Shown here: positions 10,145-35,740 of the stretch, piece by piece
Layout of the letters: every line of letters starts with the position of its first letter
How positions within the stretch are numbered: position 1 is the stretch's first letter
IMG/VR virus record: IMGVR_UViG_2721755724_000003
Strand: one strand, 5' to 3'
From: a virus
Lineage: Duplodnaviria > Heunggongvirae > Uroviricota > Caudoviricetes
Length of the DNA: 36,875 nt
Notes under the pieces: generated by a model
Seen by the model: the letters and a program-made list of their open reading frames with translations, nothing else
Database searches by the model: none
What the model was told of the DNA's origin: nothing
Program-made: the position numbers and the translations under genes

Positions 10145-10717
10145 TCAGGGAGATTTATTGCTCTTATTTGCCGGAAATTTTCGATAAATGGTAGAAACGC
10201 CTACATCAAAAATCAGTGCAATACGCTGTCTTGATTCTCCGGCCTCGAGTAAACGTCCAATCTGTGCCCACTGTTCAGTGGTCAACTTAGGACGGCGTCC
10301 ACCTACTCTGCCTTTAGCACGAGCTGCAGCCAGCCCTGCCCGGGTACGTTCAACTATCAGTTCGCGTTCCATTTCAGCCAGGGCACCCATGACATGAAAA
10401 AAGAAACGGCCCATTGGGGTACTGGTATCAATACTGTCAGTCAGGCTTCGGAAATTCACACCACGCTGGCGCAACTCTTCTATCAGCGTAACAAGATGCC
10501 GCATACTGCGCCCCAACCTGTCCAGCTTCCAGACAACCAGCGTGTCTCCTGCCAATAGTGTCCTGAGCAGTTTTTTAAGCCCCGGTCTGTCGGACTTAGT
10601 GCCACTGATTTTGTCCTCAAAAATCCGCTCACATCCCGCGCAGTTCAGCGCATTACGTTGCAAATCGGTGTTCTGGTCATTTGTTGACACGCGTACATAG
10701 CCAATAAGCATGATCAT
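10145..10717 (-). CDS. serine DNA invertase (Hin/Gin/Cin/Pin family)
   Basis: 190 aa; N-terminal GYVRVSTNDQ catalytic-serine motif, VVWKLDRLGRS, and C-terminal HTH; very close to Hin/Gin as I recall them. Confidence 0.9.
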   Translation of the reverse strand: MIMLIGYVRVSTNDQNTDLQRNALNCAGCERIFEDKISGTKSDRPGLKKLLRTLLAGDTLVVWKLDRLGRSMRHLVTLIEELRQRGVNFRSLTDSIDTSTPMGRFFFHVMGALAEMERELIVERTRAGLAAARAKGRVGGRRPKLTTEQWAQIGRLLEAGESRQRIALIFDVGVSTIYRKFPANKSNKSP

Positions 10718-10738
10718 CTCCCTGAATAAAAATAGGGG

Positions 10739-11065
10739 ATGATGCCAGTTAGCCGTAATCGCTGCATTTTCTTAAACGTTGGTTTTGGAGAGCGGTTACT
10801 GGAGGCTGATGGGTACTTTGAATTACCGGGAGGATTGCTGCTGCAATGGGGGCACGGCTCGATTCATGCGTCAAGTGCCATTATACAGTTTAAGAAGTCG
10901 TTTAACGTCACTCCGTTCATTGTACTGCCGCATAAAATCACAACTGATGGTCGGTATGTGACGTCATCTAATTATACCTTAACTAGCTTTAGCCTTTATG
11001 GATGGAATGGAAACGGCACGGTAAACAATATTGACAGCTATACGTATTTTGCACTCGGGATGTAA
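10739..11065 (+). CDS. silent alternative tail-fibre C-terminal cassette
   Basis: ORF begins inside the crossover site; encodes ...VGFGERLLEADGYFELPGG..., parallel to the H C-terminus (...LGLGEAAK...WFRLPGG...). It would be fused to the H constant part after inversion. Confidence 0.55.
   Translation: MMPVSRNRCIFLNVGFGERLLEADGYFELPGGLLLQWGHGSIHASSAIIQFKKSFNVTPFIVLPHKITTDGRYVTSSNYTLTSFSLYGWNGNGTVNNIDSYTYFALGM
10769..10794. repeat. gix/cix-like crossover site, left boundary of invertible segment
   Basis: TTCTTAAACGTTGGTTTTGGAGAG, resembling the Gin gix site; inverted relative to the site at 11867-11892. Confidence 0.6.
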
Positions 11066-21370: not shown

Positions 21371-23137
21371 ATGAACACCACACTGACACCCGCAGATCTC
21401 GATCCCCGTCGGCAGGCCATGCTGCTGTACTTTCAGGGATACCGCGTAGCCCGCATTGCTGAAATGCTGGGCGAGAAAGTTGCAACCGTTCACAGCTGGA
21501 AAAAACGCGACAAGTGGGGTGACTATGGGCCGCTGGATCAGATGCAGCTCACCACCGCCGCACGCTATTGCCAGCTCATTATGAAGGAGCACAAAGAAGG
21601 GAAAGATTTCAAAGAAATTGACCTGCTGGCACGCCAGTCGGAGCGCCACGCGCGGATCGGCAAGTTTAACAATGGCGGCAACGAAGCCGACTTAAACCCT
21701 AACGTCGCCAACCGCAACAAAGGGCCGCGCCGTCAGCCGGAAAAGAATGTTTTCACCGATGAACAGATTGAGAAGCTGGAAGAAATCTTCCATTCCTCCA
21801 TGTTCAACTACCAGCGCCACTGGTGGGAAGCTGGAAAAACCAACCGCATCCGTAATCTGCTGAAGTCACGCCAGATCGGCGCGACCTTTTACTTTGCCCG
21901 TGAAGCCCTGATTGACGCCCTGCTTACCGGACGTAACCAGATTTTCCTTTCTGCCAGTAAGGCACAGGCTCACGTCTTTAAGCAATACATCATCGACTTC
22001 GCCAAAGAAGTCGAGGTGGAGCTGAAAGGCGATCCGATGGTGCTTCCTAACGGGGCCACGCTTTACTTCCTCGGCACCAATGCCCGCACTGCCCAGAGTT
22101 ATCACGGCAACCTGTATCTGGATGAATATTTCTGGATACCGAAATTCCAGGAGCTGCGCAAAGTGGCTTCCGGTATGGCTATTCACAAAAAATGGCGACA
22201 AACCTATTTTTCCACGCCATCCAGCCTGACACACAGTGCTTATCCGTTCTGGTCTGGTGCGCTGTTCAACCGTGGGCGCAACAAAGCCGATAAGGTGGAC
22301 ATCGACCTGTCCCACAGCAATCTGGCCCCCGGCCTGCTGTGCGCAGACGGGCAATACCGCCAGATAGTCACCGTGGAAGATGCAGTGCGCGGCGGATGTA
22401 ACCTTTTCGACCTCGATCAGTTGCGCATGGAGTACAGCCCGGACGAATACCAGAACCTGCTGATGTGCGAGTTTGTGGACGATCTCGCGTCCGTGTTCCC
22501 GCTCAGCGAGCTGCAGGCGTGCATGGTGGACAGTTGGGAAGTCTGGAGCGACTTTCATGCACTGGCCCTGCGCCCGTTTGGCTGGCGCGAAGTGTGGATC
22601 GGTTATGACCCGGCAAAAGGTACGCAGAACGGCGACAGCGCCGGATGCGTGGTGGTGGCACCGCCAGCCGTGCCAGGCGGTAAGTTTCGCATTCTTGAAC
22701 GTCACCAGTGGCGCGGGATGGACTTCCGCGCCCAGGCTGACGCCATCAAAAAACTGACCGAACAGTACAACGTGACATACATCGGTATCGACTCAACCGG
22801 CGTCGGTCACGGGGTTTACGAGAACGTGAAAGCGTTTTTTCCTGCCGTCCGGGAGTTTGTCTACAACCCCAACGTTAAAAACGCCCTGGTACTCAAGGCC
22901 TACGACATTATTAGCCACCGCCGCCTGGAGTTTGACGCAGGGCACACCGACATAGCGCAGTCCTTTATGGCAATCCGTCGCGCCACCACTGCCAGCGGCA
23001 ACCGCCCGACCTATGAAGCCAGCCGCAGCGAAGAAGCCAGCCACGCCGATCTGGCCTGGGCAACAATGCACGCACTGTTTAATGAACCGCTGCAGGGCGA
23101 GTCCGCCAATACCAGCAATATTGTGGAGATTTTTTGA
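21371..23137 (+). CDS. P: terminase large (ATPase) subunit (P2 gpP-like)
   Basis: 588-aa ORF divergent from O; P2 gpP is about 590 aa. Confidence 0.85.
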   Translation: MNTTLTPADLDPRRQAMLLYFQGYRVARIAEMLGEKVATVHSWKKRDKWGDYGPLDQMQLTTAARYCQLIMKEHKEGKDFKEIDLLARQSERHARIGKFNNGGNEADLNPNVANRNKGPRRQPEKNVFTDEQIEKLEEIFHSSMFNYQRHWWEAGKTNRIRNLLKSRQIGATFYFAREALIDALLTGRNQIFLSASKAQAHVFKQYIIDFAKEVEVELKGDPMVLPNGATLYFLGTNARTAQSYHGNLYLDEYFWIPKFQELRKVASGMAIHKKWRQTYFSTPSSLTHSAYPFWSGALFNRGRNKADKVDIDLSHSNLAPGLLCADGQYRQIVTVEDAVRGGCNLFDLDQLRMEYSPDEYQNLLMCEFVDDLASVFPLSELQACMVDSWEVWSDFHALALRPFGWREVWIGYDPAKGTQNGDSAGCVVVAPPAVPGGKFRILERHQWRGMDFRAQADAIKKLTEQYNVTYIGIDSTGVGHGVYENVKAFFPAVREFVYNPNVKNALVLKAYDIISHRRLEFDAGHTDIAQSFMAIRRATTASGNRPTYEASRSEEASHADLAWATMHALFNEPLQGESANTSNIVEIF

Positions 23138-24162
23138 TGGGAAAGAGTAAGAAAAACCGCGCTGCGGCGACGAATCAGCTCAAGCATAAAAGCCAAACTT
23201 CAGCCGAAGCATTCAGCTTTGGCGATCCCGTTCCTGTTATGGACCGCCGTGAACTGCTGGACTATGTGGAATGCGTACAGATGGATCGCTGGTATGAGCC
23301 GCCCGTCAGCTTTGACGGACTGGCACGAACCTTCCGCGCCGCCGTGCATCACAGCTCACCAATTGCGGTGAAATGCAACATTCTGACCAGTACCTACATC
23401 CCTCACCCGCTGCTCAGCCAGCAGGCTTTTTCACGTTTTGTGCAGGACTATCTGGTATTTGGTAACGCCTACCTGGAGAAACGCACGAACCGCTTCGGTG
23501 AAGTTATCGCCCTTGAGCCTGCTCTGGCAAAATACACCCGACGCGGGTTAGACCTGGATACCTACTGGTTTGTGCAATACGGTATGACAACCCAGCCGTA
23601 TCAGTTCACGAAAGGCAGCATTTTTCATCTGATGGAACCTGACATCAACCAGGAGATCTACGGCCTACCAGGTTATCTTTCTGCCATTCCGTCAGCCCTG
23701 CTCAACGAGTCCGCCACGCTGTTCCGCCGGAAGTATTACATTAACGGCAGCCATGCAGGCTTCATCATGTACATGACCGATGCCGCGCAGAACCAGGAGG
23801 ATGTGAACAACCTCCGCAATGCGATGAAAAGCGCCAAAGGCCCTGGCAACTTCCGCAACCTGTTTATGTACTCGCCTAACGGCAAAAAGGACGGGCTTCA
23901 GATCATCCCGTTGTCAGAAGTCGCGGCGAAGGATGAATTTCTGAACATCAAGAACGTCAGCCGTGATGACATGATGGCAGCACACCGCGTACCGCCTCAG
24001 ATGATGGGAATTTTGCCGAATAATGTTGGGGGTTTTGGTGATGTGGAGAAGGCGAGCTGCGTCTTCGTAAGAAATGAACTATTACCACTTCAAAAAAGAT
24101 TCATGGAAATAAACAGATGGCTTGGTCATGAAATTATAAATTTTGAAATATATACATTATAA
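23134..24162 (+). CDS. Q: portal protein (P2 gpQ-like)
   Basis: 342-aa ORF overlapping the P stop (ATGA); P2 gpQ is about 344 aa. Confidence 0.85.
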   Translation: MMGKSKKNRAAATNQLKHKSQTSAEAFSFGDPVPVMDRRELLDYVECVQMDRWYEPPVSFDGLARTFRAAVHHSSPIAVKCNILTSTYIPHPLLSQQAFSRFVQDYLVFGNAYLEKRTNRFGEVIALEPALAKYTRRGLDLDTYWFVQYGMTTQPYQFTKGSIFHLMEPDINQEIYGLPGYLSAIPSALLNESATLFRRKYYINGSHAGFIMYMTDAAQNQEDVNNLRNAMKSAKGPGNFRNLFMYSPNGKKDGLQIIPLSEVAAKDEFLNIKNVSRDDMMAAHRVPPQMMGILPNNVGGFGDVEKASCVFVRNELLPLQKRFMEINRWLGHEIINFEIYTL

Positions 24163-24167
24163 AACCC

Positions 24168-24190
24168 AACGGCATCACAATGATGCCGTT
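24168..24190 (-). terminator. hairpin terminator between convergent Q and the PIN-like cargo gene
   Basis: Perfect inverted repeat aacggcatca / tgatgccgtt; on the minus strand it is followed by a T-rich run (gggttttata). Confidence 0.5.
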
Positions 24191-24199
24191 ATGAACGAA

Positions 24200-25261
24200 T
24201 TAATATTCAAAATTATTTTCTTCAATAGAGAACTCAATCCCTCGGGATAACTTATCAATATTCACATCAAATGCGATATCTGTTAATTCACCATCCTCGA
24301 TTTCATACATAACTTCAATTTCAATATCGAAACTAATCTCTTGAACTTCAGTTCGTGTGGTTGTCTCCATTGGAATCATTACTTTATCTTCGCTATCCCA
24401 ATACCCATTATTAAAGTCTGGACCAGAAACAGTAACTTCAAAATCTACAGAAACAGAGAAGGTCGCTAGACAATAATTATTGTCAATCTTAATTATTGAT
24501 GGTTCAAAGTCATCAATATTGACGACTTCAAATGAATCCAATTCAGCGTCTTCCCAAGTTGAAACGTTATATCCATCGGCATCATTGAGTTGGGCAATTA
24601 CGTCCGCTCTTATGTCTTCACGTTTGCTTTCGATAAACTGCATCAATTTATTACTTAATTCGTTTGTATGCGTATTGTATTCACCTAGAAACTTATCAAG
24701 TGAATCAATTTGATGAAGATTGTTTTTACCATCACAATAATTTTTTAAGTCACTATCCTCAGAAATGATATACACATCTTCATCATTAACAAATCGCTCT
24801 ACCGCAGCTAAAGTGATTGCATCAGGAAACTCACTTTTTTTCTTATTTTGCCCAAATGGTGGTTCTTTGCCAAAGTATTTATCTAAAACCTCATTAAGAT
24901 CTATCACTTCTATTGTAGCTAATTTGGCGTGACATCCTTTCAAAAAATCATCAAAAACTTTTTGTGCTGCTTCGTGAATTTCATGTTCGTTAAATTGCTG
25001 AAAAAAACCATGGAGCGGTCCATTATCAATACTATTCAAAAGCCTAGCTTTTCTTTGTACTGTGTTTATAGCCTGCAGAGCATCCTTTATTGATTCCTCT
25101 ATTTTACCTTTTACTTCTCTCTCTACAACTGTAGTTGTAATTAAGACTAAATCACCTTTCGCACATAATTCATGGAAAGCTTTAAATGCTACCCCCTCAA
25201 AATGAAGACCAGCCTTTACGTACGTTTGTGTGTCAATAAATACCTTATTTGTTTTAAGCAT
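24200..25261 (-). CDS. unassigned cargo protein, PIN-like N-terminal domain plus acidic C-terminal domain
   Basis: 353 aa, AT-rich; N-terminus carries PIN-like acidic positions (VFIDTQTY, LITTTVVEREV, YIISEDSDL); the C-terminal 130 aa or so are strongly Asp/Glu-rich. Confidence 0.55.
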   Translation of the reverse strand: MLKTNKVFIDTQTYVKAGLHFEGVAFKAFHELCAKGDLVLITTTVVEREVKGKIEESIKDALQAINTVQRKARLLNSIDNGPLHGFFQQFNEHEIHEAAQKVFDDFLKGCHAKLATIEVIDLNEVLDKYFGKEPPFGQNKKKSEFPDAITLAAVERFVNDEDVYIISEDSDLKNYCDGKNNLHQIDSLDKFLGEYNTHTNELSNKLMQFIESKREDIRADVIAQLNDADGYNVSTWEDAELDSFEVVNIDDFEPSIIKIDNNYCLATFSVSVDFEVTVSGPDFNNGYWDSEDKVMIPMETTTRTEVQEISFDIEIEVMYEIEDGELTDIAFDVNIDKLSRGIEFSIEENNFEY

Positions 25262-25387
25262 ACTAATCCTAATAAGTTTTAAGATCCGCTACAATTGTTT
25301 ATGTTTATTTTTTATCAATAATCATACGTAGTTAAGATTATCCATGTCGAAAAATTAAATCAACTTCAATTTATCCTTAAGCGCGCG

Positions 25388-25406
25388 CTCGTATCCCCGC
25401 CACGCC
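25388..25406 (-). other. candidate cos (cohesive end) site
   Basis: Minus strand reads GGCGTGGCGGGGATACGAG; the first 13 nt match my recollection of the 186/P2 cohesive end (GGCGTGGCGGGGAAAGCAT), and the orientation relative to Q is as in P2. Confidence 0.5.
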
Positions 25407-25728
25407 TGCCCGCTTTATGTAGTGGTTTTCATGCACCTGCATGTTCTACGTAAAAGCCCGCTAGTTCTGGCGAGCCTTAGCAAAAACGATCCTTAAACGA
25501 TCATGCGATTTCATGCAGCATAGTCATGCACTGTCTAAGAGAAGTGAAAGTCCGTATCTGAATGACCACTTGAAAAACGAAACATACAGACTTACAAAGA
25601 TGAAGCTCTACTGTGAGCGAGGAACATACATAGTTGCTCTGTAATAGCCAAATTTTAAGCAGGAAATCTCTTTTTTATGACAAAACTATAAAGAAAAACA
25701 GACCGTTTCATCGCTCGATGAAACTATA

Positions 25729-27306
25729 CTACAATACTTTTCTCTCGATGGTATTTTTAATGGTCAACATATCTTTAGGAATACTTTTTTTCCCCTCTAT
25801 ACGTATGGTAAACACAAAAAGAATAACGGCTGATCTCACAATTTTCATGAGTTGTAAGAGCTGTTTCTCAAACTTTTCTTTCTCAATAAATCTCACCTCA
25901 TCAAAAAATCCATAAGAATTATATAAATCAACTAACATGTCTTTCTCGTGAATAACTAACAGTTTATGTTCTAAATCATTCCTCCATTCTTTAAAAAAAG
26001 CAAGCTCACCATTTTTATCATTCAAATCCATAGCAATACTAAACAAACCCAGCAATCCTTTATTATTTATTTTGTTTATTTTAAGCTTTCTTTTTTCATC
26101 ACTAATCCGCCAGAAGTTATGAAAGTATATATGTCCTCTATCTGGTTTTAAATCAAATAATTGACACAGAGCAACTGCTATTTTATCCAAGATACCAAAG
26201 CAAGCTCTAAATGCAACCCTTAACTTCTCAACATTTTCATACAATATTTCTCCATTATACAATTCAGAATAACATACCTCCGAATCCTCATCAAAAAACT
26301 CACTATCAACCTTATATTCAAAAAACATTTTTCGTGCTAAGGAATACTCAGCTTTAAGTCTATTTAACACCATTTCCATTGGCACTATAAAATCACCAAA
26401 CACACCTTCCTCGGTGGTCGCAATAGTTATATTATCTTTAGATGACGCATAACAATTGCAATATAGCGAATGATCAGACAACATTAGATTATTATCTATA
26501 CAAAACCTCTGGTAGTTTGATAAAGTATCATACTCCTCCTGCGTGAGCCTTTCATCTGTACTTATATCCTCTATGCCATATACACATGATTCACTCAATA
26601 TACTTTCGTTGTACTTTATTTTTCTTTGAAGAGCAACCTTCCATGAAGGAAAACATTTCCCTGACTTTATTGCACACTCATAACCTCGAATAACTTCTTT
26701 AATCATTTTATATGTATATGTTGTAGATAATTCATTAAGCAATTCTAATGCCTCAGATCTGTTTACCCACGCCTGAGGAATTGAGTTATCAATAGATATT
26801 GCTTGTTCATAATAATCCATTGATTCAGATATACGATATTGTTTTTTTAATACATTAGCTAGATTAACTATTAAATCAGGGGGCACCCATCCATCTTCTT
26901 GTGAAAGTTTAAACGCTTTCCAGTAATTATTTTTTACATCATTCAGCTTAATGAAACTATCAATATCTGCATTGTCATTAGGATTAAAATCAAGAACTGC
27001 GCTCATTCCATTTGCCAAGTTATAGTAATATAAAGATTCTTTCATTATAGTCAGAAATTCATTTTTATTGTTTATAAAGATATTTAAGCCTTCCTCCGCT
27101 ATATTTTTTACATTACTAAAATTTCCGATATCAATAAGATTTCCGGCCAAATTAGATAATATAATTATTCTATTTTCTTTGATTGTATTTATCTCATCGA
27201 TACCGTTAAGAATATCCTTTACATTTTTATAGGCAGAATCAAATGAACCTGCATTAATAAGATCATCTACGAACCCCATTTTTGAAACAACATAGTTGAT
27301 ATCCAT
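25729..27306 (-). CDS. unassigned cargo protein, TPR-like N-terminal region plus C-terminal HEPN-motif region
   Basis: 525 aa, AT-rich; TPR-like stretch (YYEQAISIDNSIPQAWVNRSEALELL) and C-terminal EWRNDLEHKLLVIHE matching the HEPN Rx4-6H signature. Confidence 0.55.
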   Translation of the reverse strand: MDINYVVSKMGFVDDLINAGSFDSAYKNVKDILNGIDEINTIKENRIIILSNLAGNLIDIGNFSNVKNIAEEGLNIFINNKNEFLTIMKESLYYYNLANGMSAVLDFNPNDNADIDSFIKLNDVKNNYWKAFKLSQEDGWVPPDLIVNLANVLKKQYRISESMDYYEQAISIDNSIPQAWVNRSEALELLNELSTTYTYKMIKEVIRGYECAIKSGKCFPSWKVALQRKIKYNESILSESCVYGIEDISTDERLTQEEYDTLSNYQRFCIDNNLMLSDHSLYCNCYASSKDNITIATTEEGVFGDFIVPMEMVLNRLKAEYSLARKMFFEYKVDSEFFDEDSEVCYSELYNGEILYENVEKLRVAFRACFGILDKIAVALCQLFDLKPDRGHIYFHNFWRISDEKRKLKINKINNKGLLGLFSIAMDLNDKNGELAFFKEWRNDLEHKLLVIHEKDMLVDLYNSYGFFDEVRFIEKEKFEKQLLQLMKIVRSAVILFVFTIRIEGKKSIPKDMLTIKNTIERKVL

Positions 27307-27593
27307 TCAATCCTCTTTAAACTAAGCTAATAATACCAATCATTATATGGATGAGATCAATATAGAACATGCCATCTCCGGCAAAAATCGTACTACATCA
27401 GACCAGTGCCCTTCAAATAATATAAATTGAACTTAGATACTTCTGCTTCAACCAGTGTGTTAAATCCATCGCTTGAACTCAGAACAAAAAGCGGACGATC
27501 ACTTATCAAAATGGCCGTCCACCTAACGCCTCGTTTCACTCGTTGCCCAAAATAGTCCCCCATCAGAATGAATCCTCTTGGGGGCAACGTTTC

Positions 27594-27827
27594 TTAATGC
27601 AGCCAGCTGTCGTCTTCCCACACCTTCTGCATAATTTTCATCACTTGCTTCCTTTCTTCGTCCAGTTGCAGTCCGGTTAGTTCCACACCGTTAGAGCTAC
27701 CTTTGCGAATGCGAATTACCGTTTTGGGATACAGGGGGCACAGATTGCGGTAAAGCTCGGATTCAAGGGCGTCCAGGGTAGACTGGCTAATCTTCTGCTC
27801 TTTATCGATCACTATTTCAATGCGCAT
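27594..27827 (-). CDS. DinI-family protein (Tum C-terminal-domain-like)
   Basis: Start placed at ATG 27827; from MRIEIVIDKEQ..., which resembles the N-terminus and C-terminal WED/W motif of E. coli DinI. Confidence 0.7.
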   Translation of the reverse strand: MRIEIVIDKEQKISQSTLDALESELYRNLCPLYPKTVIRIRKGSSNGVELTGLQLDEERKQVMKIMQKVWEDDSWLH

Positions 27828-28179: not shown

Positions 28180-30594
28180 TTAATACAGGTTCCGCCACTT
28201 ATCATCTTCCCGCAAACACTGGTTCCGATAGAAGATACGCAAGCCTGCTCCTGACGGAATACTGCCGCCGCGAAGGAGTAAATCGACCTCTTTCTCGCTA
28301 CCATCAAATCCTCTGGACTTCAGCTCATAGACGAGCTGCAGTCGCTGATGGTCTGTAATTCGCTGTTTGTAGTCTTTACGCCGTTTCGGTTTCACCAGGC
28401 GTAACCTTGCAGCCAGTTCCCGGCGCTCTTTTTTGTTCATACTGTGCAGGTAATCGTGCAACTCCTTGTCATCCATGCTGGTAATGTCCGTTCTGGGGTC
28501 CCCATCAGCTGATTTATCTTTCTCCTGTTGGTTCAAATTTTCAGCAAGGGGACAGTTATTGCCACGAGTCCAAGGGGCGCAAGCGCCCTGGTCGGCTGCC
28601 GCCTCCTGAATGTCAACGGCCTTACGAACCATTTTCCACTTCACGGCATGAGTGCAGATCTTGCCCTCTGCAATAGGTGACCAGATGCCATAAATACGAA
28701 TGCCGTGATCGCCATAGGCGGTCGGCTCTTCGTTGATTTCATAAGCAGTTCTGATGAGGTGATATTTGCGGGGAACCAGTACGCCGCCCTGCTTCATGAT
28801 GTAGGTGGCAAAACAACCAGCATCAGCAGCAGCCAGGATTGCATCAAGGCGCGGGTTATCCAGTACCGGCGCACCTGCTTTTTTGTCCCCCTGTTGCCTT
28901 GCCGCCTGACCAGCCAGCAATCGCAGTTCACGGTAAGCCTGACGCCCCGGAATGCCAAAGAAGCGGAATTGCTGAACACGATGCAGAGACGCCCAGGCAT
29001 TAACGTATTCAGCATTATCACGCAGGGATTTCCCCGTTTCCTTGCTGATCTCGCCAGCCAGACCACGCCCGTCAATGTTCTTACTGATGTATTTCGCGAT
29101 GTAGCTTGTTGGCGTACCTTTGCGCGGGTTAATCAACTCAGACTTAAAGCGCGGTCCAGTGTTATTGCCCAGCTCCTCGCGGTCTTCACGGATGGCAAAC
29201 TTACGCAGTAATGCAGTGATGGCGCGGCGGTCTTTTTTGCGCATAAAACACAACAGGTGCCAGTGAACTGTACCGTCATGATGCGGCTCAGCCACCCGCA
29301 CGCCATACCAGCGCAATCCGGCTTTGTGCATCGCCTTACGAAATGCAGCAAACATGCCGACCAGATAATCACTACTTTGTCTTACCGTCGCATTTGTCCA
29401 GGTTGGGTTGGGCCTGCCGTTATTTAGCGTGGAATGGAAACGTGACGGACAGGTGATGGTGTAGAAAACGGCGCAGTCACCGCGCATTTCCGCGATAAGC
29501 TCCAGACCTTTAACACAGGCCATCATCTCATTGCGGCGATGCGCAGGGTTGCTGCTGCTGGCGTTTACCACATCCTCCATGTCCAGCGTGTCGCCGTCTT
29601 CGTTCACCAGTTCATGAGAACGGAAAAACTCCAGCGACTTACGGCGCTGCTCACGTTTATGCATCACGGCTTCATAGCTGACATAAGGAGATGCTTTTTT
29701 GCTAACCAGGCAGACAGCGCGCAACTGCTCTTCCCGCCATTCGCAACGCATCTTCCATAATTTCCGATACCACCAGTCAGCGCACAACATACGCGCCAGC
29801 GAACCCGGAATGAGTTCATAGGGCACGGGTTTACGGCGGTTTCTTTTCCGGCGGAGTTGCTCAAACGCAGGCGGGATGACATCCAGACGCAGGGTTTCCG
29901 CTGCCACCTTTTCCCATGTATTGCGGATTTCTTCTGGCTTAACGTCATCGGTGACATACAAATCGCCACAAGCTACATCAAGGCACATGCTCATATGCGC
30001 AGCGACAAGGGTAGACAAGCGTTTCACCTGATCCTGACTCATTTCAGGCAGGATCAGCAGGCCGTCCAGCCCTTCATGGCTTGCCATAAAGCGAAAAGAA
30101 GTGGATAGCTGACTGTCGCGTACATGCTCCAGTCGTTCCAGACATGGCTTAATCGTCTCACGCAAATAGCGGGAATAAGCCTTTGGCCTGCCCAGGCTGC
30201 TGAAGTATTCAATACGTTGCATCAGCGGCTTGCTGATATGGGAAGGCTGGGCATTGACGTCCGCCAGAATGACCATGTCCGGGTTAAAACGCTGCTGCTC
30301 ATGCGCCAGCTTTGCCCGACTAATGAGCTTATCCTGCTCCATTTCGCGCTGGACAGGATCACGGGATTCATTAAAGAAATAACGCTCCCAGACCTGATCA
30401 CTCAGCGCCTCACGGCGCAGCTGTTCCTGCTCGTTATCGGCAGCGTACAGAGTGATCAGATTTGAAAGCGCAGAAACCGGCGCAACTTCCGCCGGGTCCA
30501 GATAAGGGTTAATGGCCTTTTTCGGGCTGTTCCATGAGAATGCTGCGGCGACCTCGTTAAAGCCGCTAGAGTTGCTCATATCGTCATGACTCAT
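28180..30594 (-). CDS. A: replication initiation endonuclease (P2 gpA-like rolling-circle initiator)
   Basis: 804-aa ORF with a YIAKYISK-type tyrosine motif; position matches A of P2/186. Confidence 0.85.
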
Positions 30595-33624: not shown

Positions 33625-34188
33625 ATGAATTTGGAAAAAGGCGGTCGTGGGGCCATAGAGCGCATGGTTGAAGCCTATGGTTTCAAGACAAGACAAGCTT
33701 TGTGTGATCATTTGGGCATTTCTAAAAGCACCTTAGCCACGCGCTATATGCGTGATTCATTCCCGGCAGAATGGGTAATCCAATGTGCACTTGAAACCGG
33801 CACGTCGCTAGAGTGGCTAACTACTGGGCAAGGTTCAAAAGAAAGTTCACAAAAAGAAAACACAAAAGAGATCGAAAGGAAGATTTTATCAAGCGGAAAA
33901 CTACTTCCTGATGGTTACTACATTTTCGACAACAACTTTTTGCCTGAAAAACTAAAAAAACCTTTTGTTGTGATCGATGGCGCATCAGAGTTTATCTGTG
34001 ATTCGGATTATGAGGATGTACGTGATGGTAAGTGGATCGTTGATATTGATGGCGAGGTTGCTATCAGGAATCTGACAAGACTGCCGGGACGTCGTCTAAA
34101 TGTCGATGGCGGCAGCAGTTCCTTTGAATGCAAAATAGATGAAATTGATATCATAGGAAAAATTAGAAGCGCGATCGTCAATTATTAA
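33625..34188 (+). CDS. cI: 186-type CI immunity repressor
   Basis: About 187 aa with an N-terminal HTH ([20 protein letters not shown]) and a C-terminal domain; start at ATG 33625 with GGAG upstream (the ORF track opens at GTG 33619). Confidence 0.75.
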
Positions 34189-34211: not shown

Positions 34212-34397
34212 ATGTTTTATAAATCTATACATATCCTACTTATTTGTTTATTTATTACGTTACCTATTACAAGTTTTGCAAAAAATTATCCATGTTCTGG
34301 TAAGAAAGGGGGAGTTTCACATTGTACATCTGATGGGAAGTTCGTTTGCAATGATGGAACGCAAAGCAAGTCAAAGAAAATATGTTCTAAAAACTAA
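34212..34397 (+). CDS. small secreted Cys/Lys-rich peptide
   Basis: Start at ATG 34212 with an AAGGA ribosome-binding site; signal peptide [23 protein letters not shown], then a mature part of about 38 aa with four cysteines. Confidence 0.5.
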
Positions 34398-34408: not shown

Positions 34409-35740
34409 ATGAATAATGATATGACTTTTGAAAACAGAGATGAGTATAATAGAAAAATCATTGCTGAAAAAATAATAAGCTTACTCGAGTCCCCCTTAAA
34501 AATATCCCCTATTGTTATCGATGGGGACTGGGGTACCGGTAAAACCGAATTTTCAAAAAAATTAGCGGCATTGATTGAAAAAAATGAATCTGGGCATAAA
34601 GTAGTATATATTGATGCATTTACTGAAGATCATAATGATGCTCCCATACTTACTATAATGGCTGCAATAGTTGCATTATATCCAGAGAGTGAAAAGAAGG
34701 AATTAATATCAAAGGCATTACCAGCATTGAGATTTGGACTTAAAACTGTACTCAAAGCTGGCGCTGGGTGGATTTTAAAACAAAATGCAGATGATATTGC
34801 GGATGAATTCGAAGATGCTATTAAAGATGCGGCTAACTCAGCTATAGATGGTACTGTAGAAGCACTGCTTGATGATCATATTGAAGCAAAGAAACATTTG
34901 CTTGCTCTCAAGGAAGTACTTGCTGAACTAACTAGCGAAAATAAAATAACAATTATCATTGACGAACTTGACCGTTGTAAACCAAGCTTTGCCATCTCTA
35001 TCATCGAAAATATAAAACATGTTTTTGACACTGAAAATCTTAACTTCTTGTTAGTTGCTAACATCTCACAATTGAAAGCATCAATAAATCATATTTACGG
35101 TGCAGGTGTTGACTCAGAAAGATATCTTGATAAATTTATAAAATTCACTTACAGCCTGCCAGTGACTTTCACTGAAAACAATTACGATAAAATTTTGGCT
35201 TCGAACTCTCATTTTAGAATGCTATGTAACGAGTCTGAAAGACTAAAAGAAATTGGAGAAAGTAGTATTCATATAGTTCAAAAATTTATCGAACTAAAAG
35301 GCTTGTCGCTACGGGAAGTTGAAACCTTATCAAGATATCTAGAAATTTATCAAATTTTATCTCAAAATGAAATCAGCAATAAATTTATACCAGGCTATTG
35401 CTGTTATCGAACCCTTGCAGTAATTCTTTATTCGTTTGGTCGTGAACTGGCCCTTAACTACGTAGAAGATAAAATAGATGCACAATTAATAATCAATTTC
35501 TTCGGTGTTAATAGACTCCCATATCAGACAGATCAATATAACATCAACATCTACTATTATGCATTATTTGGTATAACTTATAAATATATGCCAGAAGGTT
35601 CTCCTTTACTTCCTTCTGAAAACGATGAAAAAAACAGATGGGCTGAAATAAGTGATTATCATATTTTAAAAGGAAATGCAGGTGTAGAAGACCCTGTTAG
35701 AATATTCAAAAACACCTTAAAAGTTTTCTTGCTCCAATGA
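34409..35740 (+). CDS. KAP-family P-loop NTPase
   Basis: Walker A GDWGTGKT, a YIDAF motif after it (KAP proteins have NAW-like motifs there) and Walker B IIIDELDRC; AT-rich; sits between cI and int. Confidence 0.7.
   Translation: MNNDMTFENRDEYNRKIIAEKIISLLESPLKISPIVIDGDWGTGKTEFSKKLAALIEKNESGHKVVYIDAFTEDHNDAPILTIMAAIVALYPESEKKELISKALPALRFGLKTVLKAGAGWILKQNADDIADEFEDAIKDAANSAIDGTVEALLDDHIEAKKHLLALKEVLAELTSENKITIIIDELDRCKPSFAISIIENIKHVFDTENLNFLLVANISQLKASINHIYGAGVDSERYLDKFIKFTYSLPVTFTENNYDKILASNSHFRMLCNESERLKEIGESSIHIVQKFIELKGLSLREVETLSRYLEIYQILSQNEISNKFIPGYCCYRTLAVILYSFGRELALNYVEDKIDAQLIINFFGVNRLPYQTDQYNINIYYYALFGITYKYMPEGSPLLPSENDEKNRWAEISDYHILKGNAGVEDPVRIFKNTLKVFLLQ

Follow-up and report, generated by a model that had tools for sequence, protein, structure and literature searches.

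In P2-like phages, the hotspot that extends from gpA through cos to gpQ is a reservoir of anti-phage systems (PMC9122126; PMC9519451). Within the HEPN superfamily, which includes KEN, the LA2681 family was described as a HEPN domain that is fused to, or encoded in an operon with, TPR and that conserves the Rx4-6H motif (Anantharaman 2013, Biol Direct 8:15). The present analysis concerns a gene in which these two lines of work meet, the 525-aa TPR-HEPN gene of the IMG/VR virus record IMGVR_UViG_2721755724_000003. The window, that is, the whole stretch of 36,875 nucleotides that was analysed, is an entire P2/186-like prophage of Escherichia coli H2, from ogr to an int gene adjoining ybjL, and is 100% identical to NZ_CP010163.1. 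The encoded protein is a member of HEPN_LA2681, with a full-length domain match, the Rx4-6H motif and the TPR fusion. It is probably a TPR-gated, dimerisation-dependent HEPN RNase that acts in abortive infection and is carried by the prophage as a single-protein moron cassette.

Existing records already cover the gene and its family as well as the architecture and the location in the hotspot, and the gene is of an ordinary kind, in an expected place. A first-pass annotation, made from the nucleotide sequence of the window, had called it unassigned; this did not hold, as RefSeq names the protein, a Pfam/NCBI family exists for it, and Rousset 2022 lists it as a P2-hotspot system. In Table S5B of that study (PMC9122126), a protein with one different amino acid (S for N at residue 62) is system #100, 'HEPN_LA2681/RNPP_C', described as 'Likely a RNAse' and found 33 times among 18,150 P2 loci, and the raw locus table gives the TPR-HEPN gene with varying neighbours, such as AAA_15/21 and KAP_NTPase. 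System #100 was catalogued only and does not appear in Table S2A/B, where the systems that were cloned and tested are given. In the supplement of DefensePredictor, an LA2681 HEPN protein of 335 aa comes out as a predicted defence gene (log-odds 9.1), and in the main text of the searchable literature PF18733/HEPN_LA2681 was not found beyond Anantharaman 2013. The first-pass annotation had been unable to match the gene to a named system, and a PADLOC v2 check agreed with it, giving no system-specific match. Identity with a known named defence system was rejected, because neither the protein nor the homologs linked to EruA and rtc match any model in PADLOC or NCBIfam.

Several described systems resemble this locus in part. 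The P2 old/tin genes occupy the same slot (gpA/DinI to cos), follow the same strand logic and are AT-rich moron cargo with a presumed role against competing phages, but their products are unrelated to the TPR-HEPN protein, with no sequence similarity and another effector chemistry, Old being an ABC-ATPase with a Toprim nuclease. By analogy, RNase L and Ire1 may share its design logic, with an N-terminal repeat or sensor region and a single HEPN-type RNase that dimerises on ligand binding to become active; the TPR-HEPN protein nevertheless lacks a kinase or pseudokinase, has TPR instead of ankyrin repeats, and shows no detected sequence relationship to them. No PADLOC or Pfam model for ApeA/Gao_Ape, AbiD/AbiF/AbiJ/AbiU2/AbiV, RnlA/LsoA, HepT-MntA or PrrC matches it, and it is encoded without an MNT, RnlB or ABC-ATPase partner. 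Compared with such single-protein or toxin–antitoxin (TA)-type HEPN defence RNases, the TPR N-terminal domain is specific to the LA2681 TPR-HEPN family. The P4-hotspot 'HEPN-TPR' (pFR83, from E. coli ATCC8739) has the same two domain types and lies in the cos-proximal hotspot of a P2-dependent element, but its domains stand in the opposite order, HEPN then TPR, and it has no detectable similarity to the TPR-HEPN protein (BLASTP E=2.1). Identity with it was ruled out on that comparison, and the lack of activity of pFR83 when tested (Rousset 2022) says nothing on the TPR-HEPN gene.

Domain architecture and predicted catalytic motif

The gene and its parts are the following.

25729–27306, minus strand: 525-aa TPR-HEPN gene, from the open reading frame (ORF) listing with an ATG start, the RefSeq annotation of the identical E. 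coli H2 record and the Pfam match to PF18733 (E=1.8e-38)
25789–26391, minus strand: HEPN domain, residues 306–506, with the Pfam match at 309–504
25966–25983, minus strand: predicted catalytic Rx4H motif RNDLEH (R442, N443, E446, H447), from the translation and its invariance among homologs
26392–26586, minus strand: linker, residues 241–305, with the invariant motif LS-x-H-x2-YC-x-C...D-x3-I (H279, C283, C285), from a 36-sequence alignment
26587–27306, minus strand: N-terminal TPR-like helical-repeat domain, residues 1–240, presumed sensor or regulatory module, from the AlphaFold2 (AF2) model, Foldseek and the family profile

By its sequence, the C-terminal domain is a bona fide LA2681-family HEPN domain. 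The Pfam model HEPN_LA2681 (PF18733) matches residues 309–504 over model positions 9–204 of 204, with 132.4 bits against a cut-off of 27, and all 120 homologs listed carry PF18733. The RNDLEH motif sits within FFKEWRNDLEHKLLVIHE (residues 437–454), and its R442, N443, E446 and H447 are invariant in 36/36 aligned homologs, the alignment comprising full-length sequences with 36–84% identity to the query. RNxxEH is also kept in 55 of 60 related genomic loci, including every intact copy, the five exceptions being truncated or fragmentary ORFs of 87–412 aa. Further invariant residues of the 36-sequence alignment lie in the first helix (E311, N315, R316, K318, E320) and in the segment C369-F-G-x-L-D374. 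The HEPN Rx4-6H motif that the first-pass annotation had placed near the C-terminus is upheld by the Pfam match and the invariant Rx4H dyad, and the peptide that it gave, EWRNDLEHKLLVIHE, was confirmed by translation. The HEPN call is made because of the hidden Markov model match and the invariant motif; the evidence from fold is compatible with it but weak, the predicted domain matching solved catalytic HEPNs only poorly.

A catalytically dead HEPN domain that serves as a nucleotide- or protein-binding scaffold, with no RNase activity, is very improbable. Many HEPN families are indeed non-catalytic (Anantharaman 2013), and the weak fold match to solved catalytic HEPNs speaks for the same view, but the R, the H, N443 and E446 are invariant at 30–85% identity across many phyla, and LA2681 is scored in that same survey as conserving Rx4-6H. 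A transmembrane protein, as implied by the entry '1 TM' in the Rousset table, was ruled out: according to the model and the Pfam match, the hydrophobic stretch at residues 483–501 (pLDDT, the per-residue confidence of the model, 93–96; invariant S492/A493/F497) is the last HEPN core helix.

The TPR-like repeats that had been noticed in the N-terminal half are also borne out, by the family profile and by Foldseek on the AF2 model. In this model of the full-length protein (pLDDT 86; predicted template modelling score, pTM, 0.88), residues 3–240 form paired helices only, mostly at pLDDT 80–96, and the top Foldseek matches in the PDB are all TPR proteins (OGT TPR, consensus TPR, MamA). The 36-sequence family profile matches consensus-TPR and OGT TPR structures at positions 127–197 (E=2e-17 to 1e-10), TPR being the only solved-structure matches of the full-length profile, and the single-sequence Pfam matches to TPR_10/8/2 are weak and below threshold (residues 144–193). 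Mean pairwise identity is 38% in the TPR half versus 58% in the HEPN half; judged from the alignment, this faster divergence of the TPR domain is as expected for a sensor-effector pair. The pTM of 0.88 suggests a fixed arrangement of the two predicted domains. No STAND (NACHT/NB-ARC) NTPase domain was found, as no NTPase family matches within the 525-aa protein and a linker of 65 residues is all that separates TPR from HEPN. This linker is modelled mostly as structured coil (pLDDT 83–93). Across the linker and the early HEPN domain, H279-x3-C283-x-C285 is invariant and C345, C369 and C381 are nearly so, and these His and Cys residues may form a candidate zinc site or redox-sensitive element.

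We infer expression in the lysogen, RNase activity, activation by dimerisation, TPR-mediated sensing and an anti-phage phenotype, which would combine as follows. Because the composite active site needs two paired HEPN domains, a lone one providing only half, the protein would be made in the lysogen in inactive form, each copy with half of the Rx4H site. When a competing phage infects the cell, the TPR superhelix would bind a ligand, which is most likely a protein or peptide of phage origin and possibly a perturbed host factor, and this binding would permit or re-orient homodimerisation and unite two RNxxEH motifs. Metal-independent cleavage of cellular and/or phage RNA (tRNA, rRNA, mRNA) would then leave 2',3'-cyclic phosphate and 5'-OH ends, translation would halt, and the infection would be aborted or the cell would become dormant, so that the lysogen population and the prophage would be protected. 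A TPR superhelix is used as a ligand-binding surface in Avs sensors (PMC13581612). The proposal of the first-pass annotation that the gene encodes a HEPN RNase, as candidate abortive-infection or toxin cargo, is supported, its defence or toxicity part remaining presumptive.

The cassette beside cos

The features that delimit the setting of the gene are, along the minus strand from gpA, the following.

28180–30594, minus strand: gpA, followed by a small hypothetical gene
27594–27827, minus strand: DinI-like gene
25625–27483, no strand assigned: entire swappable cargo cassette of the DinI–cos slot, from blastn against a P2-like prophage without the TPR-HEPN gene (L003)
27307–27483, minus strand: 5' region of the cassette, with the ribosome-binding site AAGAGGA at 5 nt from the ATG, a perfect TATAAT at about 40 nt upstream and no good −35
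25705–25724, minus strand: terminator-like hairpin GTTTCATCGAGCGATGAAAC with a T-rich tail, 5 nt after the stop codon, from the sequence and a terminator scan
25388–25406, minus strand: cos-like 19-mer GGCGTGGCGGGGATACGAG
24200–25261, minus strand: PIN_12 gene
23137–24162: portal gene Q, whose end at 24162 is met after PIN_12

The TPR-HEPN gene is thus on the same strand as gpA and the DinI-like gene and, as expected of the gpA-cos-gpQ hotspot of a P2-like prophage, lies between gpA and portal gene Q and adjoins cos. The cos-like 19-mer, which has a single match in the window where 0 are expected by chance, is a landmark outside the gene and divides the HEPN slot from the PIN_12 slot. Its context is the same as in the P2/P4 hotspot clones printed in Table S2 of Rousset 2022, and the region around it (25360–25556) is conserved in Klebsiella and Salmonella P2-like phages. 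The position of cos therefore places the TPR-HEPN gene between the DinI-like gene and cos. The coordinates and the unique 19-mer confirm the first reading of the gene as lying on the early-operon strand, in the DinI-to-cos slot where P2 carries old/tin, and the description of this locus as a variable hotspot for anti-phage cargo agrees with Rousset 2022 (PMC9122126) and Vassallo 2022 (PMC9519451).

The contrast of an AT-rich ORF with a GC-rich backbone was likewise correctly seen: GC content is 31–37% over 24.0–27.5 kb versus 53–60% in the flanking phage backbone, and 31–33% within the cassette at 25625–27483. In the comparison with L003, homology stops at 25624 and restarts at 27484, which sets the breakpoints at 25624/25625 and 27483/27484, and the slot of L003 is occupied by a DUF8087 gene in place of TPR-HEPN. 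The content of the slot varies among near-identical prophages, since the flanks were matched in 1,277 E. coli genomes and the TPR-HEPN gene in only 11. The terminator scan of the region gave 7 terminators against 1.9 expected, and the cassette was found to contain neither a small partner ORF nor repeats, whether tandem or in arrays, nor an RNA of Rfam. The TPR-HEPN gene is a solo, self-contained cargo cassette.

A single-gene, AT-rich mobile cassette would also suit an addiction module that stabilises the prophage by post-segregational killing, with the TPR domain as a cis-acting antitoxin and no role against other phages. This is quite improbable, for several reasons. No separate labile antitoxin is present as a small ORF, tandem repeats or a known RNA family, and the neighbours vary; post-segregational killing cannot arise from an inhibitor that is fused and equally stable; and several copies elsewhere are pseudogenes without apparent cost. 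For a type III TA system in particular, no antitoxin RNA was found by Rfam, and the only tandem repeat is a 30-nt AT-rich stretch in the 3' end of the portal gene (24129–24158). Nor was a cognate antitoxin (MNT nucleotidyltransferase, RnlB or Dmd-like) found beside the TPR-HEPN gene, whose neighbours change between genomes.

On the other side of cos, the PIN_12 gene (353 aa; Pfam PF16289, E=1.5e-25) forms an AT-rich cassette of its own at about 24163–25380, in the cos-to-portal slot. A promoter-like site (25350–25321) and a terminator (24191–24167) belong to it alone, PADLOC gave no match, and further P2-like prophages of E. coli have PIN_12 but no HEPN gene; the P2 locus table of Rousset 2022 lists it as 'PIN_12'. 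The limits of this second slot come from a comparison with L002, in which the HEPN gene is present beside a different cos–Q cargo. Of the 11 HEPN-bearing E. coli genomes, 9 are without PIN_12, and IMG/VR prophages with an identical HEPN gene have three different cos–Q spacings. The PIN_12 slot varies independently of the HEPN slot.

As HEPN and PIN_12 share a strand and a high AT content, are separated by about 470 bp and both encode predicted RNases, they could be viewed as one two-gene RNase system. The chance of this is close to negligible: cos stands between the two genes, they have separate terminators and PIN_12 its own promoter-like site, each occurs without the other (9 of the 11 HEPN genomes lack PIN_12, and PIN_12 is found elsewhere without HEPN), the cos–Q spacer has three sizes, and the homology breakpoints define two separate cassettes. 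The two-gene system is effectively refuted by the independent distribution, the intervening cos and the separate breakpoints.

Homologs beside defence genes and in rtc operons

The TPR-HEPN family is small but widespread, a search of 1.84 billion representatives having given 121 clusters (50% identity) at E<=1e-30. The architecture is kept at about 510–550 aa in most of the 150 best cluster representatives, most of the best-scoring clusters having 500–550 aa, and the family has members in Gamma- and Betaproteobacteria, Campylobacterota, Bacteroidota, Ignavibacteria, Chlorobiota, Calditrichota, Desulfobacterota, Deferribacteres and others. Homologs broken into pseudogene-like fragments were seen in Enterobacter sp. 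EA-1, Cedecea neteri, Arsenophonus endosymbionts and Aliamphritea (L018, L021, L042, L053, L060), which is consistent with a dispensable, readily lost accessory gene.

No universal partner gene was found across the homolog loci. Two close relatives are also in phage-like surroundings, an 81% identical homolog that adjoins a lambdoid Q antiterminator and Rha/Ant-like regulators (a lambdoid prophage), and an 83% identical homolog that adjoins a giant methyltransferase-like phage ORF (another phage-like element). Other homologs are in integrase-bounded islands and defence islands. One island with a homolog contains Wadjet JetABC and Abi_alpha, another an integrase, a HigBA-like pair and AbiJ_NTD4, and further neighbours include BrxC/BrxF, type I restriction–modification, OloB, AbiTii and SoFic. 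In five Enterobacterales genera (Citrobacter, Moellerella, Pantoea, Rahnella and Phytobacter), a TPR-HEPN gene with 41–44% identity follows, at a distance of 12 bp, an EruA equivalog of 1,356–1,358 aa (NCBIfam antiphage_EruA, 1109 bits versus a cut-off of 1000), with a phage-type integrase nearby. The EruA-linked loci are these.

L009, 3897–9590
L010, L011 and L015, 3882–9575
L046, 481–5376
L072, 2360–6280, in which a transposase gene and then a 767-aa ORF that has no PHROG match lie upstream

EruA of Erebus, a NACHT protein, has been equated with the capsid-sensing Avs10 (PMC13581612). The present locus differs from Erebus EruA/Avs10, a NACHT STAND sensor of the phage major capsid protein, in that EruA is absent from the window, and the EruA-HEPN pairing is local and non-defining. 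An obligatory partnership with EruA, in which TPR-HEPN would be an 'EruB', was ruled out, as the EruA homologs carried by plasmids of Bradyrhizobium, Pantoea and Vibrio lie beside different genes.

A second kind of neighbourhood concerns RNA repair. In 10 Moraxellaceae or gammaproteobacterial loci (Psychrobacter, Acinetobacter and an unclassified gammaproteobacterium), the homolog is inside an rtc operon, mostly as rtcR (divergent)-rtcB-[TPR-HEPN]-rtcA, with gaps as small as 1–18 bp; in L025, these are 18 and 1 bp, and an Rsr/Ro60 homolog lies upstream. In a Chitinophagaceae metagenome-assembled genome, independently of the Moraxellaceae cases, the homolog is 13 bp upstream of an RtcB-family ligase, and in a further metagenomic contig RtcB and DUF6847 are close by. 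In Moraxellaceae and some Bacteroidota, one operon combines the predicted nuclease with repair genes. The rtc-linked loci are these.

L026, 4687–10759
L023–L030, L033, L049, L025 and L074, also rtc-linked
L044, 591–3651

A DUF6847 protein of about 150 aa (Pfam PF20935) recurs beside the rtc-linked TPR-HEPN genes (L022, 9564–10040; L023, L024, L049 and L074, 8030–8488), and may act there as a partner with an accessory or regulatory role. Among Y-RNA and other RNAs, only the signal recognition particle RNA was found in the rtc-linked loci. No description of the rtc-operon embedding of TPR-HEPN was found in the searchable literature. RtcB seals breaks with 2',3'-cyclic-phosphate and 5'-OH ends, which are the product ends of metal-independent HEPN RNases (PMC9879122). 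The co-location with rtc is therefore the best indirect evidence that the protein cuts RNA, because RtcB ligates HEPN-type ends.

The same loci also feed the main competing explanation, in which the protein is a stress or RNA-quality-control nuclease that feeds Rtc (RtcR-RtcB-RtcA) repair or signalling and that would, in a prophage, adjust translation or RNA turnover of the host as a lysogenic-conversion factor, for instance during SOS. Homologs are embedded with tight spacing in rtc operons of two unrelated lineages, the L025 locus with its Rsr/Ro60 gene among them, and many homolog neighbourhoods are not defence islands. There is also a precedent, as strain-specific Gifsy-1 prophage genes are needed for rtc induction in Salmonella during SOS, a HEPN protein being among the candidates considered (PMC9879122). 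We nevertheless regard this explanation as unlikely, because the copy in the window has no rtc genes nearby and lies in a phage hotspot known for defence cargo, other homologs are in defence islands, and the association with rtc concerns only about 12 of about 70 loci examined, mostly from Moraxellaceae. Rtc and immune roles are, moreover, not mutually exclusive.

A more speculative proposal, to which we give a modest chance, would combine the two. TPR-HEPN would supply the 'damage' side of an immune circuit in which RNA is reversibly broken and repaired. A phage ligand would be sensed through TPR, tRNA or rRNA would receive specific nicks with 2',3'-cyclic-phosphate ends that suit re-ligation by RtcB and RtcA, and the nicks would also be the signal that switches on RtcR. 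The solo copy borne by the E. coli phage would exploit the rtcBA genes of the host, with translation arrest followed by recovery of survivors, and hence dormancy instead of suicide.

Returning to the favoured reading of a ligand-gated RNase of abortive infection, a number of observations weigh against it. Expression in the lysogen is assumed, and a consensus scan found no two-hexamer sigma-70 promoter upstream of TPR-HEPN. By sequence, no solved-structure relative of the HEPN half was found even at E<=10, and in PADLOC-DB v2.0.0, where no system-specific model matched, the only matches were a generic TPR model (E=1.3e-4) and Csx1/Csm6 (E=0.048). The gene is rare and its selection for defence presumptive: it is present in 11 of 5,426 complete E. 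coli genomes, all at >=99.6% identity, and tblastn found it in none of 50,697 sequenced phage records; among phage sequences, it is carried only by IMG/VR prophage predictions. Many homologs have housekeeping genes as neighbours, and the rtc context is compatible with a housekeeping or stress role in RNA processing rather than immunity. Hotspot position alone is a weak predictor of activity, and five of eight additional cloned P2-hotspot loci were without activity (Rousset 2022, PMC9122126). Finally, no RNase assay, toxicity test or phage challenge on the HEPN_LA2681 family was found in the searchable literature.

If the favoured reading is true, the gene would be a compact, single-gene, ligand-gated RNase, one more entry for the P2 hotspot and a new TPR sensor with a mappable trigger. 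The embedding with rtcB and rtcA is the more useful lead, as it offers a testable link of a defence-type HEPN nuclease to bacterial RNA repair, and the natural substrates and inducers of bacterial Rtc RNA repair are still debated. The residual interest of the gene thus lies in a family for which no characterised member was found and in its presence in rtc operons.

Other cargo of the prophage

Besides the HEPN and PIN_12 slots, a third AT-rich cargo with a KAP NTPase gene (GC 0.31–0.36) and, elsewhere in the prophage, a DNA invertase gene were observed.

34409–35740, plus strand: KAP family P-loop NTPase, between the cI repressor (33625–34188) and the integrase (from 35823)
34212–34397: hypothetical gene of 61 aa that precedes the KAP NTPase
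10145–10711: DNA invertase of the recombinase family

The KAP NTPase region looks like another accessory or defence-type slot of the prophage. The DNA invertase adjoins a gp53-like fragment and tail-fibre genes, in a region (10145–11065) of lower GC content (0.46–0.47), and probably acts to switch the host range through the tail fibres, in the way of other P2-like or Mu-like phages.

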